64,000 nt of DNA from Raja brachyura (lineage: Eukaryota), in NCBI GenBank assembly GCA_963514005.1, contig OY740804.1, positions 19,344,001 through 19,408,000 of the forward strand, in the 5' to 3' direction. The notes below the pieces were generated by a model. The model was not told where the DNA came from. It did no database searches and worked only from the letters and a program-made list of their open reading frames with translations. Below are positions 416-51,477 of this stretch, in pieces. Numbering within the stretch: position 1 is the stretch's first letter; the number at the start of each line of letters is the position of its first letter. Made by a program: the position numbers and the translations under genes.

Positions 416-1223
416 ACATACAAATCAAAGCTGAATGTAAACTGTCACCTCCAGTTGCTGCCAGTTTCTTGGCAGGCTTCCTCCACAATACAATTAGAGG
501 AGGTGGGTGTTGCTTTATGTTTTCTCTGCCACATGCTTGACCCCTCACTGACTTGCTACGATCCCATAACATTTCTCACATTTGTGCATTGAGGAATACA
601 TGGAGCAGAATACCTGCTGGCAAGCACATATTTCACAGGTCAACAGGAGGAAAGGATCAATAACATTACATGGCAGAATGACACCTCTGTCTGGCCCATG
701 CAGAACCAAATATGACAATCTTTCCCTCAGCTGCTACAAGAATGGCTCCAGGCAAAGGGAATGCAATGGCAGGACATGGGGCATCCTTGATGCATTCCTG
801 TCTCAAAGTGAAGGGTGCTCTCCTCCCACATCCTGAAGATGTACAGATTTGTACGTTCATTGGTCTCTGTAAAATTGCTCCTAATGTTCAGGGAGTGGAT
901 GAGCAAGTGAGATTGTATAGAACTCGTGTGAACGAATGATCAATGGATAGCGTGAACTCGTTGGACCGAAGGGTCTGTTTCCATGCTGCAAAACTAAGTT
1001 AAGGGTGCTTTCAGGAGCCCGTTTACCATCACCAACAGAATCTTCACTCTGTTCCCCCCGTGGGTTCACTGTGTGATGTAGGAACTGTGGGCCGAGTATC
1101 TCACGGAGCCGGGAGCCAGACGATGGGCCGCATGGCCTGCTCCTGTGCTCTGTGATTCTCCCAGCTCCGATTCCTCCTCCAGTCACTGTGCTCTCCTGCT
1201 GACTGCCTCTCTTGTCTCCTCAG

Positions 1224-1541
1224 CTGGGACCGGGGCCGCCACTAGCACCGTGACCGGAGCTCGGGGACACTCGGTCTCTTTACCTGCTGGGATCACAGTC
1301 ACACCGAACATTACGAACGTTGTGTGGAGGCGGGCATCCCCCAGATTCAAGATAGCAGAACACTCAAAAGGGAACATTGAATATTATAACGCCAATTACA
1401 GGGGACGGGTAACTCTTCACCCCAGGAACTTCAGTCTGGAAATCCATGATCTACGGGGAGAGGACGCTTGTGAATATGAGGTGACTTTTGGAACAAGTTC
1501 AGGAGATGAAACTCAGGCAAGAATCCGACTGGAGGTGTACG
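1224..1541 (+). CDS. Gene A (SLAM/CD2-family receptor, ITSM-bearing): IgV exon
   Basis: Acceptor ctcttgtctcctcag|ct and donor tac g|gtgagt, 318 nt, phase 1/1. Translation AGTGAATSTVTGARGHSVSLPAG...VVWRR...YRGRVTLHPRNFSLEIHDLRGEDACEYEV...IRLEVY is a V-set domain lacking the canonical B-F disulfide, a hallmark of CD2/SLAM N-terminal domains. Leader exon not found in the window. Confidence 0.92.
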
Positions 1542-2159
1542 GTGAGTGAGACTGCCACAGAGGTCCCGGGTTTCACCGGCTCCTGAACCCGTCTAATTAA
1601 TTGGTGAGGGCAGATCCTGTGCGTTCCCCAGTTTACTGAACCCCACCGACTGCCAGTGTGTGGAGTGGGGGTCACGGCTGTAGTGCGACTGGGGCAGTGC
1701 CAGGCTGGGGGACAGACCCACCACATCCCCGGAGACTGGGCCAGGGGCCGCCAAGGAACAAAGTGTCAATGGGAAACCTCGTAGCTCCGAGGCTGAAGGA
1801 GCTGACACATGGGGAGGAAGGAAAGGATAGGGTGGGAGGGGTAGTTTAGATGGGCTGAACAGTCTGTATCTCTGAGACCTAGTTAAACAGACCCCACTGT
1901 ATCCACAGGTCAAAGGCCTTGTATGTTATGTTCAGGAATCCCAATTGTTCCATCAGTTTCCCACAGCTCTGCCTGTTCATTCCCAAGACCGCGGAGTAAG
2001 TTCACCAAGGTTTTTATTCCTCAGCCTCCATGCTTTACTGAGCGATGCCCTGTGTATTTATTCCACAGAATATGGTCCCAATCAGTGAGGCAGTGCACGT
2101 ACACAACAGCACACTCACACCCAGCAATATTGTTCCTATCTCACTCTTACAATAATATG

Positions 2160-4580: not shown

Positions 4581-4966
4581 ACTGCAAATTTCTCATGTTT
4601 ATTATATTATTTACAGATTACTATGTTTACATATTCTGTTGTGCTCCTGAAAGTAAGAAGTTCATTGTTCTCTACGGGACCTTTGATAATATCACACTTT
4701 TGACTCTTGGCTGTAAACAGGACACTGTTGGGAGTTTGAGGATGATTGCGGGCAGTGGTCGGGAAGGGAGCACAGCACGTGTGGACTTCCTCCAGCAACA
4801 ACTGTCTGAACTGTCTGAAGGGGGAGGGAAGAGATAAACTGATGGGTGGAAATGAACTGGCATTGACTTAAAGCTCACTGGTGACTGTTGGAGACAGGAT
4901 GTTGGGTTTCGAGGGGTCGACAAGGATCTCCTTTACTCATCTTTCTTCTTTCTGCCCCAACCTCAG

Positions 4967-5245
4967 AGCCCGTGGCAGGAACACAGATCGAGGCTGACAT
5001 CACCGAGATCTGCAACTTCACCCTGACCTGCTCCGTAACCTCCGGTGGCCCCATCAGCTTCACGTGGTGGAGGGAAGCTTTGGGAAACGACAACACCCGT
5101 CACCTCGAGGGGCACGGAAATACAACACATGTTTATCAGACAGCAGAGGTCGGGGACGTTGTGTACAGGTGTGAGGCCAGTAACCCGGCCAGTGAGGGCA
5201 CGGCAGAGATCCAGCTGAAGGATATCTGTAACCGGACCACATTTG
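4967..5245 (+). CDS. Gene A: IgC2 exon
   Basis: Acceptor ctttcttctttctgccccaacctcag|ag and donor ttt g|gtgagt, 279 nt, phase 1/1. EPVAGTQI...CNFTLTCSVTSGGPISFTWWRE...YRCEASNPASEGTAEIQLKDICN has the four-cysteine C2 pattern and the CxASNPxS motif typical of SLAM/CD2 domain 2. Confidence 0.92.
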
Positions 5246-14105: not shown

Positions 14106-14225
14106 GTACAGTTAATAAAACATTGATACCGGTCGTTGTCAGTGTGAGCGTTGTGGTCCTTGTCGTTGTGGTCTCTGCCATTGTGATTCGCATCAAACGC
14201 CATTCTAGAAGGGACAGGCCAGCAG
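14106..14225 (+). CDS. Gene A: transmembrane exon (uncharged TM)
   Basis: Acceptor ttttctcatctccag|gt, phase 1. GTVNKTLIPVVVSVSVVVLVVVVSAIVIRIKRHSRRDRPA is a hydrophobic span followed by a basic stop-transfer cluster. It ends at a non-canonical donor cag|GCAAGT, phase 1. Confidence 0.85.
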
Positions 14226-14560
14226 GCAAGTGTCTGACCCCTGAGGGCCAAAGGTCACAGCCCAGGGGGGAATATGGGGCGAGGGAGGAGGGGTGGTGTT
14301 CAGGGTACAGAAAAATCTCAACACGCTCTGTAAACCAGGGGACTCAGTCCAGGGGAAAAGGGTGAGGTGGGGTTGGCAGTGCAAGGTACAGGAAAGTGTC
14401 CCACACACACAGCCTCTGGACCAAGGGTTACCGCCCAGGGGAGGAGGTTAGGAGTGGGTGGGGTTCAAGATACAGGAAAGTCACAGCTTGAGAGGTCACA
14501 GCTCTGGACAGGATATAGAAAGGGGGCTGGGGTCAGGGTGAGGGGCCGGGGTGACGGGAA

Positions 14561-15929: not shown

Positions 15930-16018
15930 ACCCAGGGCCCACAGAGACTATCTACGCACAGGTTGAGCAACCACAGAGACGTCCTGCCAAACGGCAGCCT
16001 CCGGAGGGATACGAGACG
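15930..16018 (+). CDS. Gene A: cytoplasmic exon 1 with ITSM (TIYAQV)
   Basis: Acceptor ctctctctctgccccacag|ac; phase 1 matches the TM exon. Reads DPGPTETIYAQVEQPQRRPAKRQPPEGYET, with donor acg|gtaacg in phase 0. This frame is not in the ORF track. Confidence 0.85.
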
Positions 16019-16124: not shown

Positions 16125-17070
16125 CACACACCCAGCTACTGGGGTTCACTGTCCCCACACTGCCAGTTACTGGGGTACACTGTCCCCACACACTAGTTAC
16201 TGGGGTACAGGATCCCTCGCACACCCAATTACTGGGGTTCACTGTCCCCACACTGCCAGTTACTGGGGTACACTGTCCCCACACACTAGTTACTGGGGTA
16301 CAGGATCCCTCGCACACCCAATTACTGGGGTTCACTGTCCCCGCACACTAGTTACTGGGGTACAGGATCCCTCGCACACCCAATTACTGGGGTTCACTGT
16401 CCCCGCACACTAGTTACTGGGGTACAGGATCCCTCGCACACCCAATTACTGGGGTTCACTGTCCCCGCACACTAGTTACTGGGGTACAGGATCCCTCGCA
16501 CACCCAATTACTGGGGTTCACTGCCCCGCACACTAGTTACTGGGGTACAGGATCCCTCGCACACCCAATTACTGGGGTTCACTGTCCCCGCACACTAGTT
16601 ACTGGGGTACAGGATCCCTCGCACACCCAATTACTGGGGTTCACTGTCCCCACACCGCCATTTACTGGGGTACACTGTCCCCACACCGCCAGTTATTGGG
16701 GTACACTGTCCCCCACACACCCATTTACTTGGGTACACTGTCCCCACAGACCCAGTTACTGGGGTACACTGTCCCCCACACTGCCATTTACTGGGGTACA
16801 CTGTCCCCACACCGCCAGTTATTGGGGTACACTGTCCCCCACACACCCATTTACTTGGGTACACTGTCCCCACACACCCATTTACTTGGGTACACTGTCC
16901 CCACACACCCAATTACTGGGGTTCACTGTCCCCACACCGCCAGTTACTGGGGTTCACTGTCCCCACACCGCCAGTTACTGGGGTACACTGTCCCCACACC
17001 ACCAGTTATTGGGGTACACTGTCCCCCATACACCCATTTACTGGGGTACACTGTCCTCACACACCCAGTC
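16125..17070. repeat. Minisatellite of 30-32-nt monomers with higher-order (93-nt and 62-nt) organisation
   Basis: Monomers such as ggggtacactgtccccacacactagttact and ggggtacaggatccctcgcacacccaattact are tandem with no unique spacers. Confidence 0.95.
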
Positions 17071-17159
17071 ACTGTGCTATGCCTACTTCTCTTTACACAG
17101 TTGAGTGTGTCCAGAGCGCAACGTCCCTTTGCTGTAAGCACTCTCTGCTTTCTCTACAG

Positions 17160-17318
17160 GTTCAGAGACAGGAGGAGAGAATTGAGATCCTTGCCTCCGT
17201 GTATGATACTGTCACCTCTCCTGGGACCTCAGGCATTGGATCACTGGCCACCCCTGGAAACTCCCCGCACTGTGAGCCAGGAGACGTCCATCCTCCACCC
17301 CAGCCCGGGGCCCACTGA
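17160..17318 (+). CDS. Gene A: terminal cytoplasmic exon with SVYDTV motif and stop
   Basis: Acceptor ctctctgctttctctacag|gtt; phase 0 matches the previous exon. VQRQEERIEILASVYDTVTSPGTSGIGSLATPGNSPHCEPGDVHPPPQPGAH* with TGA at 17316-17318. Confidence 0.8.
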   Translation, partial: VQRQEERIEILASVYDTVTSPGTSGIGSLATPGNSPHCEPGDVHPPPQPGAH

Positions 17319-22300: not shown

Positions 22301-22350
22301 TCATTCAGTCTTGTGAGGCCTGTCTGCAGTTCCACTGACAGGGCGGGCGC
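22301..22350 (-). CDS. Gene B: terminal exon, short tyrosine-free cytoplasmic tail
   Basis: Branch-point-like ctgac plus ctctcctatctctctccccacag|gc, similar to the acceptor of gene A cytoplasmic exon 1. Phase 1 gives SARPVSGTADRPHKTE*. Confidence 0.7.
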
Positions 22351-24737: not shown

Positions 24738-24836
24738 TGATGATGTGGGTGATGACAATGACTGAGAGGAGAATCAGAAGCAGGACGGCAGCAATCGTGG
24801 CCCTCAGCCAACATCCACAGAGACAGCTTCTCAACC
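24738..24836 (-). CDS. Gene B (or relic third gene): transmembrane exon with intramembrane Arg
   Basis: Acceptor gagtaatcccctctctttcaccag|gg, resembling the gene A TM acceptor gagtaatc...ctccag. Phase 1/1, donor atc a|gtgagt. Reads GLRSCLCGCWLRATIAAVLLLILLSVIVITHII. Linkage to the 44784 exon across about 20 kb is inferred from phase, strand and the absence of another TM exon that I could find. Confidence 0.8.
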
Positions 24837-26548: not shown

Positions 26549-27040
26549 AGGTCACGGAGCTGGTCAGATTGAAGTTGCAGATATCAGTGATGTTCTGTGG
26601 CCTGATCTGTGTTCCTGACACTGGCTCTGAGGAGATACTTGTAAACCCCTTGATACCCAATAACCCGTCTCCAACAGCCACGAGCCACGAATGAGCCGAT
26701 CCCAGTTCATTTCCACCCACTAGTTTAATTCTTCCCTCCCCATTCAGTTCAGCCAGTTGTTGCTGGAGGAAGTCTACACGTGCGCTGCGCCTCCTTCCCG
26801 ACTACTGCCCGCACTCATCCACAAACTCTACACTGTGTCCTGTTTGTGGCTCTGTATCCTGGGAATTCTCTCCAGTTCCATGTCTTTTGTCACTCATTAA
26901 AAACCTGAGGGTGACCCAGCTCAGACCGGCCCTGAAACTGGCCAACAGTGGCAGCCCTGGGACTGTGATGGGCACAGACCCAGACTGGGTAGCGTGCTGT
27001 GTTCCAGAGTGAATCCAGCACATGCAGCTCCTGGGTCACA
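26549..27040 (-). pseudogene. Relic of a third SLAM-like copy: truncated IgC2 exon (26626-26549) plus homologous upstream intron
   Basis: Reads EPVSGTQIRPQNITDICNFNLTSSVT (B-strand Cys changed to Ser), then homology is lost. 26630-27040 aligns with the gene B intron 45065-45590 and partly with gene A 4720-4966, but the polypyrimidine tract is deleted. Confidence 0.85.
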
Positions 27041-44783: not shown

Positions 44784-45062
44784 CAGGTGTGGCCTGTTTG
44801 CAGTTGTCCATCAACCAGATCTGTGCCGTGCCCTCACTGACCAGGTTCCTGGCCTCACACCTGTACTCAACGTCCCCGACCTCTGCTGTGTGATGAACCT
44901 CTATCGTCTCTCCGTGTCGCAGGGGGTGATGGGTGCCGTCCTTTCCCAGAGGTTTTCCCCACCACCACCTGAAGCTGGTGGAGTCACCAGAGGTCACGGA
45001 GCAGGTCAGGGTGCAGTTGCCGGCGATGTTCTGAATCTTAATCTGTGTTCCTGCCACGGGCT
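44784..45062 (-). CDS. Gene B: IgC2 exon
   Basis: Acceptor ctttcttctctctgccccaacctcag|ag and donor cct g|gtgagt, 279 nt. EPVAGTQIKIQNIAGNCTLTCSVTSGDSTSFRWWW...YRCEARNLVSEGTAQIWLMDNCKQATP, four Cys. Confidence 0.9.
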
Positions 45063-46249
45063 CTGAGGTTGGGGCAGAGAGAAGAAAGATGAGTAAAGGA
45101 GATCCTTGTGGACCCCACGATACCCAACAGCCACAAGTGAACAATCCCAGCTCATTTCCACCCACCAGTTTAACTCTTCTCTCCCCCCCCCCCCCACTTC
45201 AGTTCAGCGAGTTGTTGCTGTACGAAGTCCACATGTGATGCGCCCCCTTCCCGACTACTGCCCGCAATCATCCACCAACTCTCCACCATGTCCTGATTAT
45301 GGCCCTGTATCATGTGATAGGAGTAGAATTAAACCATTTGGCCCATCAAATCTACTCCGCCATTCAATCATGGATGATTGAACCTGGGGATTCTATCCAG
45401 ATGCAGGGTTTTTTTTTCACTTATGCAAATGGTCCCCGTGTCCCTTATGCACCCGAGTGTGACCCAGCCCAGGCCTGTCCAGAACCTGGTCCAAGAGAGT
45501 CAACCCTGGGACTGTGGTGGGCACTGACCCAGACTGGGATAGCGTGCCATGTTCCAGAGTGAATCCAGCACCATGCAGATCCTGGGTCACATGGCCTCTC
45601 TCCCACAGAGACTGAAACAGCTCACAAATCGGGGGTATAAATAGCGAGTTATTCCCAGTCTTGTGATGGGACACATTCTGAGAGGGGAACCAAGGAGTCA
45701 GAATGGAGAAAATGTCACAAGGGACAGAGCGGAGATCTGGAGCTGCAGAGTCACCCTCACTGAAAGCAGATACATGGGTAGAAAGGGCAGGGAAATCTCC
45801 TGATCACTGCCCCCCATCCTCAGCGGATGAACTAGATCTCCCCCATGTTGGACCACACTTAGAAAATGTCCTGAGACCAGCAAAGGCCAGAATGTCCTCT
45901 AGGTGGGGATTTCAATGTCCAACATGGGAGTGGGTTGGTAGCACCTCCACAGACTGAGCCGCCGACTCCTGACGGACAGACGGGCCAGAGTGGGCTGAGC
46001 AGGGGTAATCTGGCCTGACCTGGCCATCCCCAGGCTACCAGTGGCAGGTGCATCAGTCCCTGACACTAATGATGAGAGTTACCACTGTACAGTCCTTGTG
46101 GAGACAAGTCTGGTCTTCGCACCGAAGGCTCATCCCCATCATATTGTGTGGCACCTACAATTGTGCTCAGTGTGAGAGGCTCAGAAGAGATCATGCAGCT
46201 GACAACTGGGGTCCATATGGTCCTGCGGACAACAGCAGAACTGTCCACC

Positions 46250-48627: not shown

Positions 48628-48945
48628 CGTACACCTCCAGTCGGACTCTCGCCGAAGTTTTATCTCCTGAACTTGCAACAAAATCCACCTCGTAATCACC
48701 AGCGTCCTCTCTCCGTAGATCACGGATTTCCAGAGTGAAGTTCCCGCGGTGAAGAGTTACCCGTCCCTTGTAATTGGTGACATAGTATTCAATATTCTCA
48801 TTCGAGTACTTCGCTATCATGGTTCTGGGTGATGGCCGCCTCCACGCAACGCTGGCATTGTCCGGTGCGACTGTGATCCCAGCAGGTAAGGAGACCGAGT
48901 GTCCCCGAGCTCCGGTCACGGTGCCAGTGGCGGCCCCGGTCCCAG
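48628..48945 (-). CDS. Gene B: IgV exon
   Basis: Same acceptor, donor and 318-nt length as the gene A IgV exon. AGTGAATGTVTGARGHSVSLPAG...VAWRR...YKGRVTLHRGNFTLEIRDLRREDAGDYEV...VRLEVY has no cysteine, giving a CD2/SLAM-type V domain. Confidence 0.92.
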
Positions 48946-50641
48946 CTGAGGAGACAAGAGAGGCAGTCAGCAGGAGAGCCCAGTGACTGGGGGAGGAATC
49001 GGACCTGGGAGAATCACACAGCACAGGAGCAGGCCATGCGGCCCATCGTCTGGCTCCCAGCTCTGTGAGAGACCCGGCCCACAGTTCCTACATCACACAG
49101 TGAGCCCACGGGGGGAACAGAGTGAAGACTCTCAGCACCCGGGGCCGAGGAAGGAAGTTGCAGCCGGCAGCCAGATATTGACGGACGGGTCAGGGGGGAA
49201 CAGACACGGCAAATGGGTCTGAAAAAGAAGGGGGATGGGGTGAGTTTGGAGAGAGTGAACATGGTGGAGGAACGGGGTAAATGGGAGGGTGTGAGTAGTA
49301 TGGGGGGGGGGGGGGGGGGGGGAGGAGCAGACCCCTGGAGTGCACTTACACAGATCCCTGAAGGAGGAAGTAAGGACAGGTGGGTGACTGAATACCACAC
49401 AAGCAACGACCAAAAGGTGAGAGCAACACGATCCAGGGAAAATTGGCAAATCGGATGCAAAATTATCTGGGTGATTGGAGGCAGAAGAAATTGGTAGAGG
49501 GTTGGTTTTGTTATTGGAACCCTGTGACCAGTCGTGTACTGCAGGGATTGTTGGGATTCTTACTCCCTGTGTACAATTAAAATGTTTAATTTGTAAATTT
49601 GCAGATGACACAAAAAAATCATTGGTGTCATTGGTAGGAGCATGGTCATAGACTGCAGAATGTACTATTTAGTCTTTGTTACGCTTGATCTAATTGTGTT
49701 GCCACTTTCAGGGAGTTGCGCATTTGGACCCCAAGTTCCCGCAGTATGTCAATGATGTTAAGGGTCTTGCAACGAACAATATACTTTTCCCTTACATTGG
49801 TCCTCCCAAATTGTAACACCTCACCCTTGCTTAGTTAGATCCAACCAGCTGCCATTTATCTGCTCATTTCTGTAGTTGATCTATATTCTGCTGTAATCTT
49901 TGACACCTTCCTCACTGTCTGCAACTCCACCAATATAAAATGTTATATATAATATTAAACACCCAACACAGATCCTTTTGGAACTCCATTGGTCCCAGAC
50001 CTCCAGCCAGAATATAACACACTTCTCCCACAACCTTCTGCCTTCAACGAGCGAGCCAGTTCTGAATCTGAATGACCAAGTCACTATGGATCCCATGAAT
50101 CTTAAATCAGGCCCTTCAGCCCAGTGCTACGAAACTACCTGGCTTCTCACCTCTCAATTCCAAACACCAACCATTTGCTGGTGAAAAGGCTCTTCATTTA
50201 TTGTGTATTCCCAACCTTGTTTTGACTCTCCAAACATCTCACCCCACACCTCAGGAGAAAACTTCATTTCCCTGCCCAGCTGACTGGATTCTCCTCCTCA
50301 GTTCTTCATTCTCCTCCTCATTGTCAATGACACTCAATTGTTGAACCTGCAAATTGACCCCTCTCTCTCTCTGTCTCTGTCTCTCTCTTTTTTCTCTCTC
50401 TCCCTCTCTTCATCTTCCCCCTCCTCCTCTCCCGTTTGCGTGTGTGAGAGGAACTGTCTCTGCTGTGCTGTGCCATTCTGTTATTAGACAGTTCACTTGG
50501 AGTTGGAGTTCATTGCTGTTATCCATCAGAGCTGATGATCTGAATGCCCAGAGCCCTGTAGAAGTCAGAAGCTGCTGTCAGGGTGCAATGACCTGGTTCT
50601 GATTGGGAAGGTGTTTGGTCAAACATTGCATCAAATAGTGG

Positions 50642-51416: not shown

Positions 51417-51477
51417 CTACACAGACAGCAATGAGTGATGCACAGAGCAGGGAGGGCATCCTCCTCAAAGAAAACAT
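51417..51477 (-). CDS. Gene B (SLAM/CD2-family receptor, charged TM): leader exon
   Basis: aagATG (A at -3), then MFSLRRMPSLLCASLIAVCV and g|GTAAGT, a perfect phase-1 donor. Joined to the IgV exon it gives the signal peptide ...LLCASLIAVCVAGTGA. Confidence 0.85.

Follow-up and report, generated by a model that had tools for sequence, protein, structure and literature searches.

An intron end homogenised across a SLAM/CD2-like gene cluster of the skate Raja brachyura, and the divergent IgV exon beside it

In a cluster of SLAM/CD2-like genes of the skate Raja brachyura, a short intron end is more alike between paralogs than the IgV (V) exon that follows it, and the outlier is this intron block, not the V exon. 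The history of the block matches the expectation for gene conversion, not that for constraint. We think it probable that conversion between paralogs overwrote the intron end, and that selection for different binding surfaces kept conversion from most of the exon. Support for diversifying selection acting on the GFCC'C'' face is itself weak. Two genes of the cluster, A and B, lie on opposite strands of the window, the whole stretch of 64,000 nucleotides that was analysed, with the following parts:

1224..1541, + strand: IgV exon (phase 1-1) of the SLAM-like gene A, whose leader exon falls outside the window (-2285..-2219)
1037..1223, + strand: 3' end of gene A's leader-V intron, homogenised, with a branch-point-like CTGAC, a pyrimidine tract and an AG acceptor
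1037..1300, + strand: tract of low divergence between A and B, from the intron to codon 25 (12/264 differences; MaxChi breakpoint 1301)
1542..1743, + strand: 5' part of gene A's V-C intron that can be aligned with gene B, from which it differs by 11.9%
1362..1718, + strand: piece of gene A (exon, donor and intron) shared with an element with terminal inverted repeats (TIRs)
4967..5245, + strand: Ig constant-type (C) exon of gene A
14106..14225, + strand: transmembrane (TM) exon of gene A, with a GC splice donor at 14226-14231
15930..16018, + strand: cytoplasmic exon of gene A, with the ITSM-type motif TIYAQV
17160..17318, + strand: final coding exon of gene A, carrying SVYDTV
51417..51477, - strand: leader exon of gene B
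48946..49128, - strand: homogenised intron block of gene B
48628..48945, - strand: IgV exon of gene B
44784..45062, - strand: Ig constant-type exon of gene B
26550..26627, - strand: second constant-type exon, truncated, ends approximate
24738..24836, - strand: transmembrane exon with Arg at its outer end (CWLR), assigned to gene B by inference
22301..22350, - strand: short last exon of gene B, without tyrosine

With predicted splicing, the six coding exons of gene A join into an open reading frame of 343 amino acids with zero internal stops. Gene B is predicted to splice to the TM-Arg exon at 24738..24836; with that exon and the short tail, its joined frame has 268 amino acids and, again, zero internal stops. 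The leader-V introns are 3.44 kb long in A and 2.47 kb in B, and the block is their last 183 nt. Homology between A and B around the V exon spans only ∼710 nt. Retroelement remnants adjoin the block of gene A (window 821-1036), which is without a further ∼90 nt of upstream homology common to other paralogs. A ∼31 nt tandem repeat in the cytoplasmic intron of gene A (window 16125-17074) has relatives in arrays that lie downstream of E and F.

Eight full V exons, those of genes A-H, lie at 19.345-19.708 Mb on contig C24, with A and B inside the window, and both genes belong to this eight-member SLAM/CD2-like cluster; the CD2/SLAM assignment made in a first-pass annotation of the sequence holds. 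Both V exons match the Pfam V-set domain above its cut-off, and the only two PDB sequence matches are CD84 and CD48. With the AlphaFold model of the V domain (pLDDT 91), Foldseek placed CD166 at rank 1 and CD84, CD48 and 2B4 at ranks 2-9, and also matched CD2. The V exon, constant-type exon, TM exon and tail exons sit in open frames in the CD2/SLAM layout. Receptors of this class bind themselves or other family members through the GFCC'C'' face and recruit SAP. The IgV domains of CD2/SLAM proteins lack the canonical B-F disulfide, and the invariant V columns contain zero cysteines; Cys82 of gene A is private to A among the eight paralogs. This residue (window 1469-1471), the sole cysteine of A's V domain, takes the place of a glycine that is almost invariant in the family, and is possibly destabilising or possibly part of an inter-chain bond. 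Tail motifs of the ITSM type (consensus TxYxxV/I) occur in A (TIYAQV) and D (TIYDTV), and gene B has none. In mammals the SLAM locus neighbours NCSTN and VANGL2, and Nicastrin adjoins the human SLAM locus. In the skate, gene A and Nicastrin are 0.44 Mb apart on C24; the sole Strabismus locus found in the genome is on C12, not C24.

The closest of 54 longer homologous proteins come from Amblyraja (81%) and Rhinoraja (77%). Mammalian SLAMF5/CD84, CD48, 2B4 and CD2 are described as combining a V plus constant-type ectodomain with ITSM-type tails in a tandem cluster, in which SLAMF8/9, like gene B, are without ITSMs (PMC4718992). They give the best sequence and fold matches, but at ∼25% identity and with no one-to-one ortholog shown. 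A figure legend in work on the shark MHC marks an slamf gene (PMC10751288); a literature search, with most subscription journals outside its reach, found no study of SLAM cluster evolution in cartilaginous fishes. The cluster also holds debris without a V exon: the truncated C exon at 26550-26627 and two orphan exons, one C and one TM-Arg (C24:19430935-19431042 and 19442432-19442822). On either side of the cluster, at C24:19285429-19285596 and 19723578-19723970, lie Ig constant-type exons of lower similarity (32% identity), possibly of other CD2/SLAM members.

Global alignment of positions 1037-1743 with 49132-48421 reproduced the counts first reported for this region. The intron blocks (1041-1223 versus 49128-48946) differ at 9 of 183 positions (∼95% alike) and the V exons (1224-1541 versus 48945-48628) at 45 of 318 (∼86% alike), with 30 replacement and 8 silent changes among 105 codons, or 34 and 11 differences at the nucleotide level. 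The contrast is significant (Fisher p = 0.001; p = 0.003 without CpG sites), so the annotation's statement that the exon is more diverged than the intron holds, but for the 183-nt intron end only, since the V exon is matched in divergence by its downstream intron, which differs at 24/201 positions (p = 0.51 against the exon). In the V exon, dS is 0.143, dN 0.164 and omega 1.15 (replacement versus silent sites, p = 0.86). The C exon differs at 55/270 positions (20%; dS 0.167), more than the V exon (p = 0.048). Since divergence in the downstream intron, silent sites and C exon equals or exceeds that of the V exon, it is the block that stands out. The early codons are near-unchanged, as had been noticed, with two differences in the first 25 full V codons, and a MaxChi scan placed a break at 1301 (codon 26), with 12/264 differences before it and 43/241 after (permutation p = 0.001).

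These numbers bear on the view that the intron records the true age of the duplication and that positive selection accelerated the exon threefold. The excess of replacement over silent differences in the A-B exon agrees with it, as does an omega of ∼3 for front-class codons in A-B over all codons (p = 0.011). However, the A-B split looks older than the block suggests when dated by silent sites (11/84.3, 13%), by the 3' intron (12%) or by the C exon (20%, dS 0.17), the A and B leader exons are likewise far apart, and outside the low-divergence tract the A-B front test is not significant (omega 2.2, p = 0.07). Silent exon divergence above that of the block (p = 0.024) has already largely refuted exon acceleration, which we regard as very improbable. 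The intron is thus no neutral yardstick, and the contrast between block and exon alone cannot be read as positive selection. Among other readings of the block, a coding leader was rejected: in both G and H a TGA interrupts the frame continuous with V, indel lengths are not divisible by three, and the real leader exons lie 2.5-3.4 kb upstream. A dispersed repeat was likewise rejected (10 genome matches, 9 inside the cluster), as was a structured RNA (two Rfam matches, both far under the gathering score).

Comparison of the eight paralogs within the one genome, in 28 pairs, helps to tell conversion from constraint: constraint would give a slowed copy of the exon tree, and conversion would leave recent change at its normal rate and erase the deep branches. 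Blocks differ by 3-16% in all 28 pairs, even at 44% protein identity, and remain within that range in distant pairs with an exon dS of 0.35-0.7. For example, A and E differ at 14/181 block positions with an exon dS of 0.51 and 44% protein identity; in the distant pair A-G, the 3' flank differs by 11% against an exon dS of 0.45. The block tree is star-like, its internal branches making up 12% of its length as against 41% in the exon tree. The terminal branches of E and F are 0.040 and 0.042 in the block versus 0.042 and 0.037 at exon third positions; their common stem is 0.022 in the block versus 0.242 at exon third positions. Proportional branch lengths for block and exon were rejected (2dL = 43.5, df 12, p = 1.8e-5); AU tests were borderline on so short a block. 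The star depth of ∼4% per lineage is compatible with steady conversion or with a single past sweep.

Young pairs tell against the idea that the block is a functional intronic element, an enhancer or splicing control under purifying selection that makes conversion unneeded. E and F differ at 14/183 block positions (7.7%) and 80/1063 positions of the upstream flank (7.5%; p = 1.0), with 218/3485 far downstream; B and D differ at 6/183 versus 29/526 upstream (p = 0.32), with 50/1447 far downstream. The block thus evolves at the neutral rate in young pairs, and uniform constraint, which would give an E-F block divergence of ∼1.7%, differs from what is observed (p = 3e-6). The star-like block tree, non-proportional to the exon tree, also argues against a functional element, as do tolerated indels of 2-29 nt and low divergence that extends 25 codons into the exon. 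On its side stand the confinement of the block to the cluster (9/10 genome matches on C24), its GC-rich composition (60%) and the pyrimidine tract and branch point that it contains. In A-B, the end of the intron leading to the C exon is also more alike than the C exon itself (4/66 versus 20%; ∼4900-4966 and 45063-45130). For the block as a whole we consider this explanation improbable; constraint on its last ∼40 nt is likely. The same intron end before the C exon differs at 3/73 positions between E and F, against 16% for their C exons.

Tracts and breakpoints are also visible. B-E divergence steps abruptly from 8% to 29% at -270, and three segment trees beat a single tree for the V exon by 54 log units. 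The conversion-tract check proposed by the first-pass annotation came out in part: a Sawyer-type test on intron plus third positions found no significant identical A-B run, and 2/28 pairs passed. A recent tract is visible in E-F, with 10/784 differences (1.3%) against 6-8% on either side (Sawyer-type Bonferroni p = 0.006):

C24 19.569-19.570 and 19.608-19.609 Mb: E-F conversion tract, covering the 3' V exon and ∼800 nt of intron

The annotation's suggestion that gene conversion homogenised the 5' flank is thus well supported by the star-like tree, the neutral rate in young pairs and the breakpoint at 1301. In the mechanism that we favour, interlocus conversion among tandem and inverted paralogs would reset the flanks and would be purged or blocked over the C-C'-C''-F-G region. 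Either selection, which we favour, or a mismatch barrier may exclude conversion from the exon, and the outcome would be a divergence peak at the exon with both dS and dN raised. Because silent and replacement sites rise together, overall omega would stay near 1.

Selection on the V domain was examined with site models, which our own GY94 implementation fitted to the eight V exons with one tree or three segment trees. With one tree, M0 gave an omega of 1.07, and the comparisons gave p = 0.11 (M1a/M2a), p = 0.045 (M7/M8) and p = 0.034 (M8a/M8); with three segment trees, omega was 1.02 and the p-values were 0.18, 0.09 and 0.07. This check thus favoured selection on one tree in the M8 comparisons and did not reach significance in M1a/M2a or on three trees. 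The class with omega > 1 is broad (76% of sites at 1.44), and the NEB site lists from M2a and M8, which flag most variable sites on account of that breadth, were set aside. The C exon, for which seven genes were used, gave an omega of 1.15 (with the C exons of C and F taken 4-6 codons short).

Surface classes rest on model strands; the side that each residue faces was assigned by strand alternation, counted from the invariant residues of the core, and by CD2 topology. Over all eight genes omega was 0.59 for the core, 1.14 for the back, 1.33 for the front (p = 0.12) and 1.63 for the BC loop (p = 0.04, uncorrected). By gene group, the front class gave 1.3 over all eight genes (p = 0.17), 0.8 in C/E/F/G and, over codons 26-105, 2.47 in A/B/D/H (p = 0.009; p = 0.03 against the back), a subclade chosen post hoc. 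The surface is at or above an omega of 1, and the front face exceeds 1 in the A/B/D/H subclade only. In the A-B front codons silent change is also raised, at 5/21.9 versus 17/62.1 for replacements. The four motif pairs singled out in the annotation lie at residues 28-33, 41-49, 87-90 and 95-97. Its clustering of replacements on the front face stands against the remainder of the domain with its buried core (front plus BC loop 18/38 versus 12/67, p = 0.003) but loses significance against the back surface when the 25 homogenised codons at the start are excluded (14/28 versus 8/20, p = 0.57). In an alignment of 41 related sequences, the eight paralogs plus 33 of the 54 proteins with multi-V models left out, amino-acid entropy was 1.72 bits on the front versus 1.17 on the back (p = 0.004). 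The verdict is a V domain with a constrained core (omega ∼0.5-0.6), a freely changing surface and a modest front-face excess. The diversifying selection proposed for the GFCC'C'' face has weak support: a signal appears in the post hoc A/B/D/H subclade, and the A-B omega and most site models are not significant.

The main competitor for the exon keeps conversion in the flank and dispenses with adaptive selection: the surface would drift near-neutrally, and mismatches would halt tracts in the exon. Omega values near 1 for the V exon, on one tree or segment trees, and for the C exon fit such drift, as do the back-surface omega of 1.1, the 86% of sites that M1a assigns to omega = 1 and, in gene A, Cys82 at the nearly invariant glycine together with several off-face changes. 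Pure drift does not sit well with the constrained core and the two intact reading frames, the front omega of 2.5 in A/B/D/H, or a B-D V exon in which all four nucleotide differences are replacements. Moreover, distant pairs are homogenised in the introns on either side and not in the exon between. We rate near-neutral drift as rather unlikely, and retain selection for different binding surfaces as the probable reason why conversion spared most of the exon.

The headline pattern is already known from opsins and from CEACAM32. Bovine CEACAM32 and CEACAM1 have strongly different IgV (N) exons and are most alike in the surrounding introns; conversion restricted to the flanks was described there, with candidate selected codons on the CFG face and modest formal evidence of selection (PMC7042247). 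The diverged IgV exon between alike flanking introns is described there in almost identical terms (PMC7042247), but the family and lineage differ, and here eight paralogs share the block and the tract reaches codon 25. In primate red and green opsins, conversion-homogenised introns accompany an exon divergence peak (PMC3924837); selected sites and a between-species test are known for opsins, whereas the skate pattern rests on paralogs within one genome. The features of these systems found in the cluster are flanks more alike than exon silent sites, more strongly so in distant pairs, and a flank history that differs from the exon history (the likelihood-ratio test above).

The 3' half of the exon also exists outside the genes. 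Of 40 genome protein matches to the V exon, 32 were partial, nearly all of the 3' part, and dispersed; these partial copies reside in an element of 1.5-2.9 kb with TIRs (e.g. L081-L100), and a derived element family retains only about 1521-1718. Among 20 copies, TIR ends were found on the left in 12, on the right in 9 and on both sides in 3, and the arms align. TA flanks both ends in 2/3 complete copies, where it is indistinguishable from a terminal TA. The one element examined has a single stop-free stretch of 80+ amino acids, antisense to the captured exon, and no transposase; at the gene loci the element match covers the captured part alone. In 21 copies (near-duplicates L022, L023, L025 and L028 and the split L030 excluded), the three codon positions have changed equally, and among the paralogs gene A comes closest. 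Exact genome matches number 343 for one intron 18-mer, against 0 for a control, which with 7% decay implies an estimated copy number of roughly 1,000. The element is likely a high-copy, non-autonomous Pack-TIR. Multicopy Pack-TIRs are reported as 4 cases among 370, the example described having three derived copies (PMC8277862); the skate element is likewise non-autonomous, carries a piece of a host gene between TIRs and was multiplied by transposition, here with hundreds of exact 18-mer matches. Element pieces occur in contigs from 4/4 DNA runs and element junction letters in 3/4, so capture likely predates the split of those species; orthologous blocks were not separable in these contigs, where paralogs and transposon copies are mixed. 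The copies were rejected as strict ancestors of gene A since several of their differences from A are common to other paralogs; the donor may therefore be a sister gene, and the copies were not used for polarising. CpG mutability was rejected as the cause of the block-exon contrast, which persists at non-CpG sites, and the transposon-borne copies decay alike in their exon (7.0-7.8%) and intron (6.9%) parts.

A second pattern concerns gene B and its close relative:

C24:19512051-19527722, - strand: gene D, paired with gene B (window 22301-51477, - strand)

The V exons of B and D differ at four nucleotides, giving 4/105 amino-acid changes. Their leader is common and their tails differ: that of D is long with tyrosine motifs, and B, with its splicing inferred, has a TM Arg and a tail of 15-16 amino acids. 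In Amblyraja, the model with TM-Arg (P0019) and the one with a tyrosine tail (P0017) differ at 2/105 V positions, against 20-23/105 between species, and trees of V and C, in which 17 of the 54 proteins were used, place B/D and P0019/P0017 by species. B and D thus look like candidate paired receptors with predicted opposite signalling. Paired opposing receptors are described as showing 'merohomogenization' (PMC3210942), a pattern that the B/D and Amblyraja pairing would fit: B and D have near-identical V domains and different tails, and A and B are instead diverged on the predicted binding face. Short-tailed CD2/SLAM members with a TM Arg in the motif NxxR are reported for Xenopus (PMC4536121); the TM exon assigned to gene B shares the Arg but carries CWLR, and so half of the activating motif. 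It is possible that the B/D likeness reflects independent exon shuffling or faulty gene models. One protein model, P0009, is an apparent fusion of two genes. As a tentative larger picture, skates may have a paired activating/inhibitory SLAM-like system at the ancestral SLAM locus. In it, conversion would keep the ITSM-tailed D and the short-tailed B matched in their V domains in every species, pathogen-driven selection would push A, B/D and H apart at the front face, and the mass-amplified transposon copy of the A-type exon would be a dated neutral record of that face.

The cluster is a clear case in which a flanking intron misleads as a neutral clock, and for the exon's 3' half the transposon copies can serve as a neutral control. 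The locus is of value to comparative immunology, where the B/D pair suggests a paired-receptor logic for the SLAM family in an early-branching lineage of jawed vertebrates.
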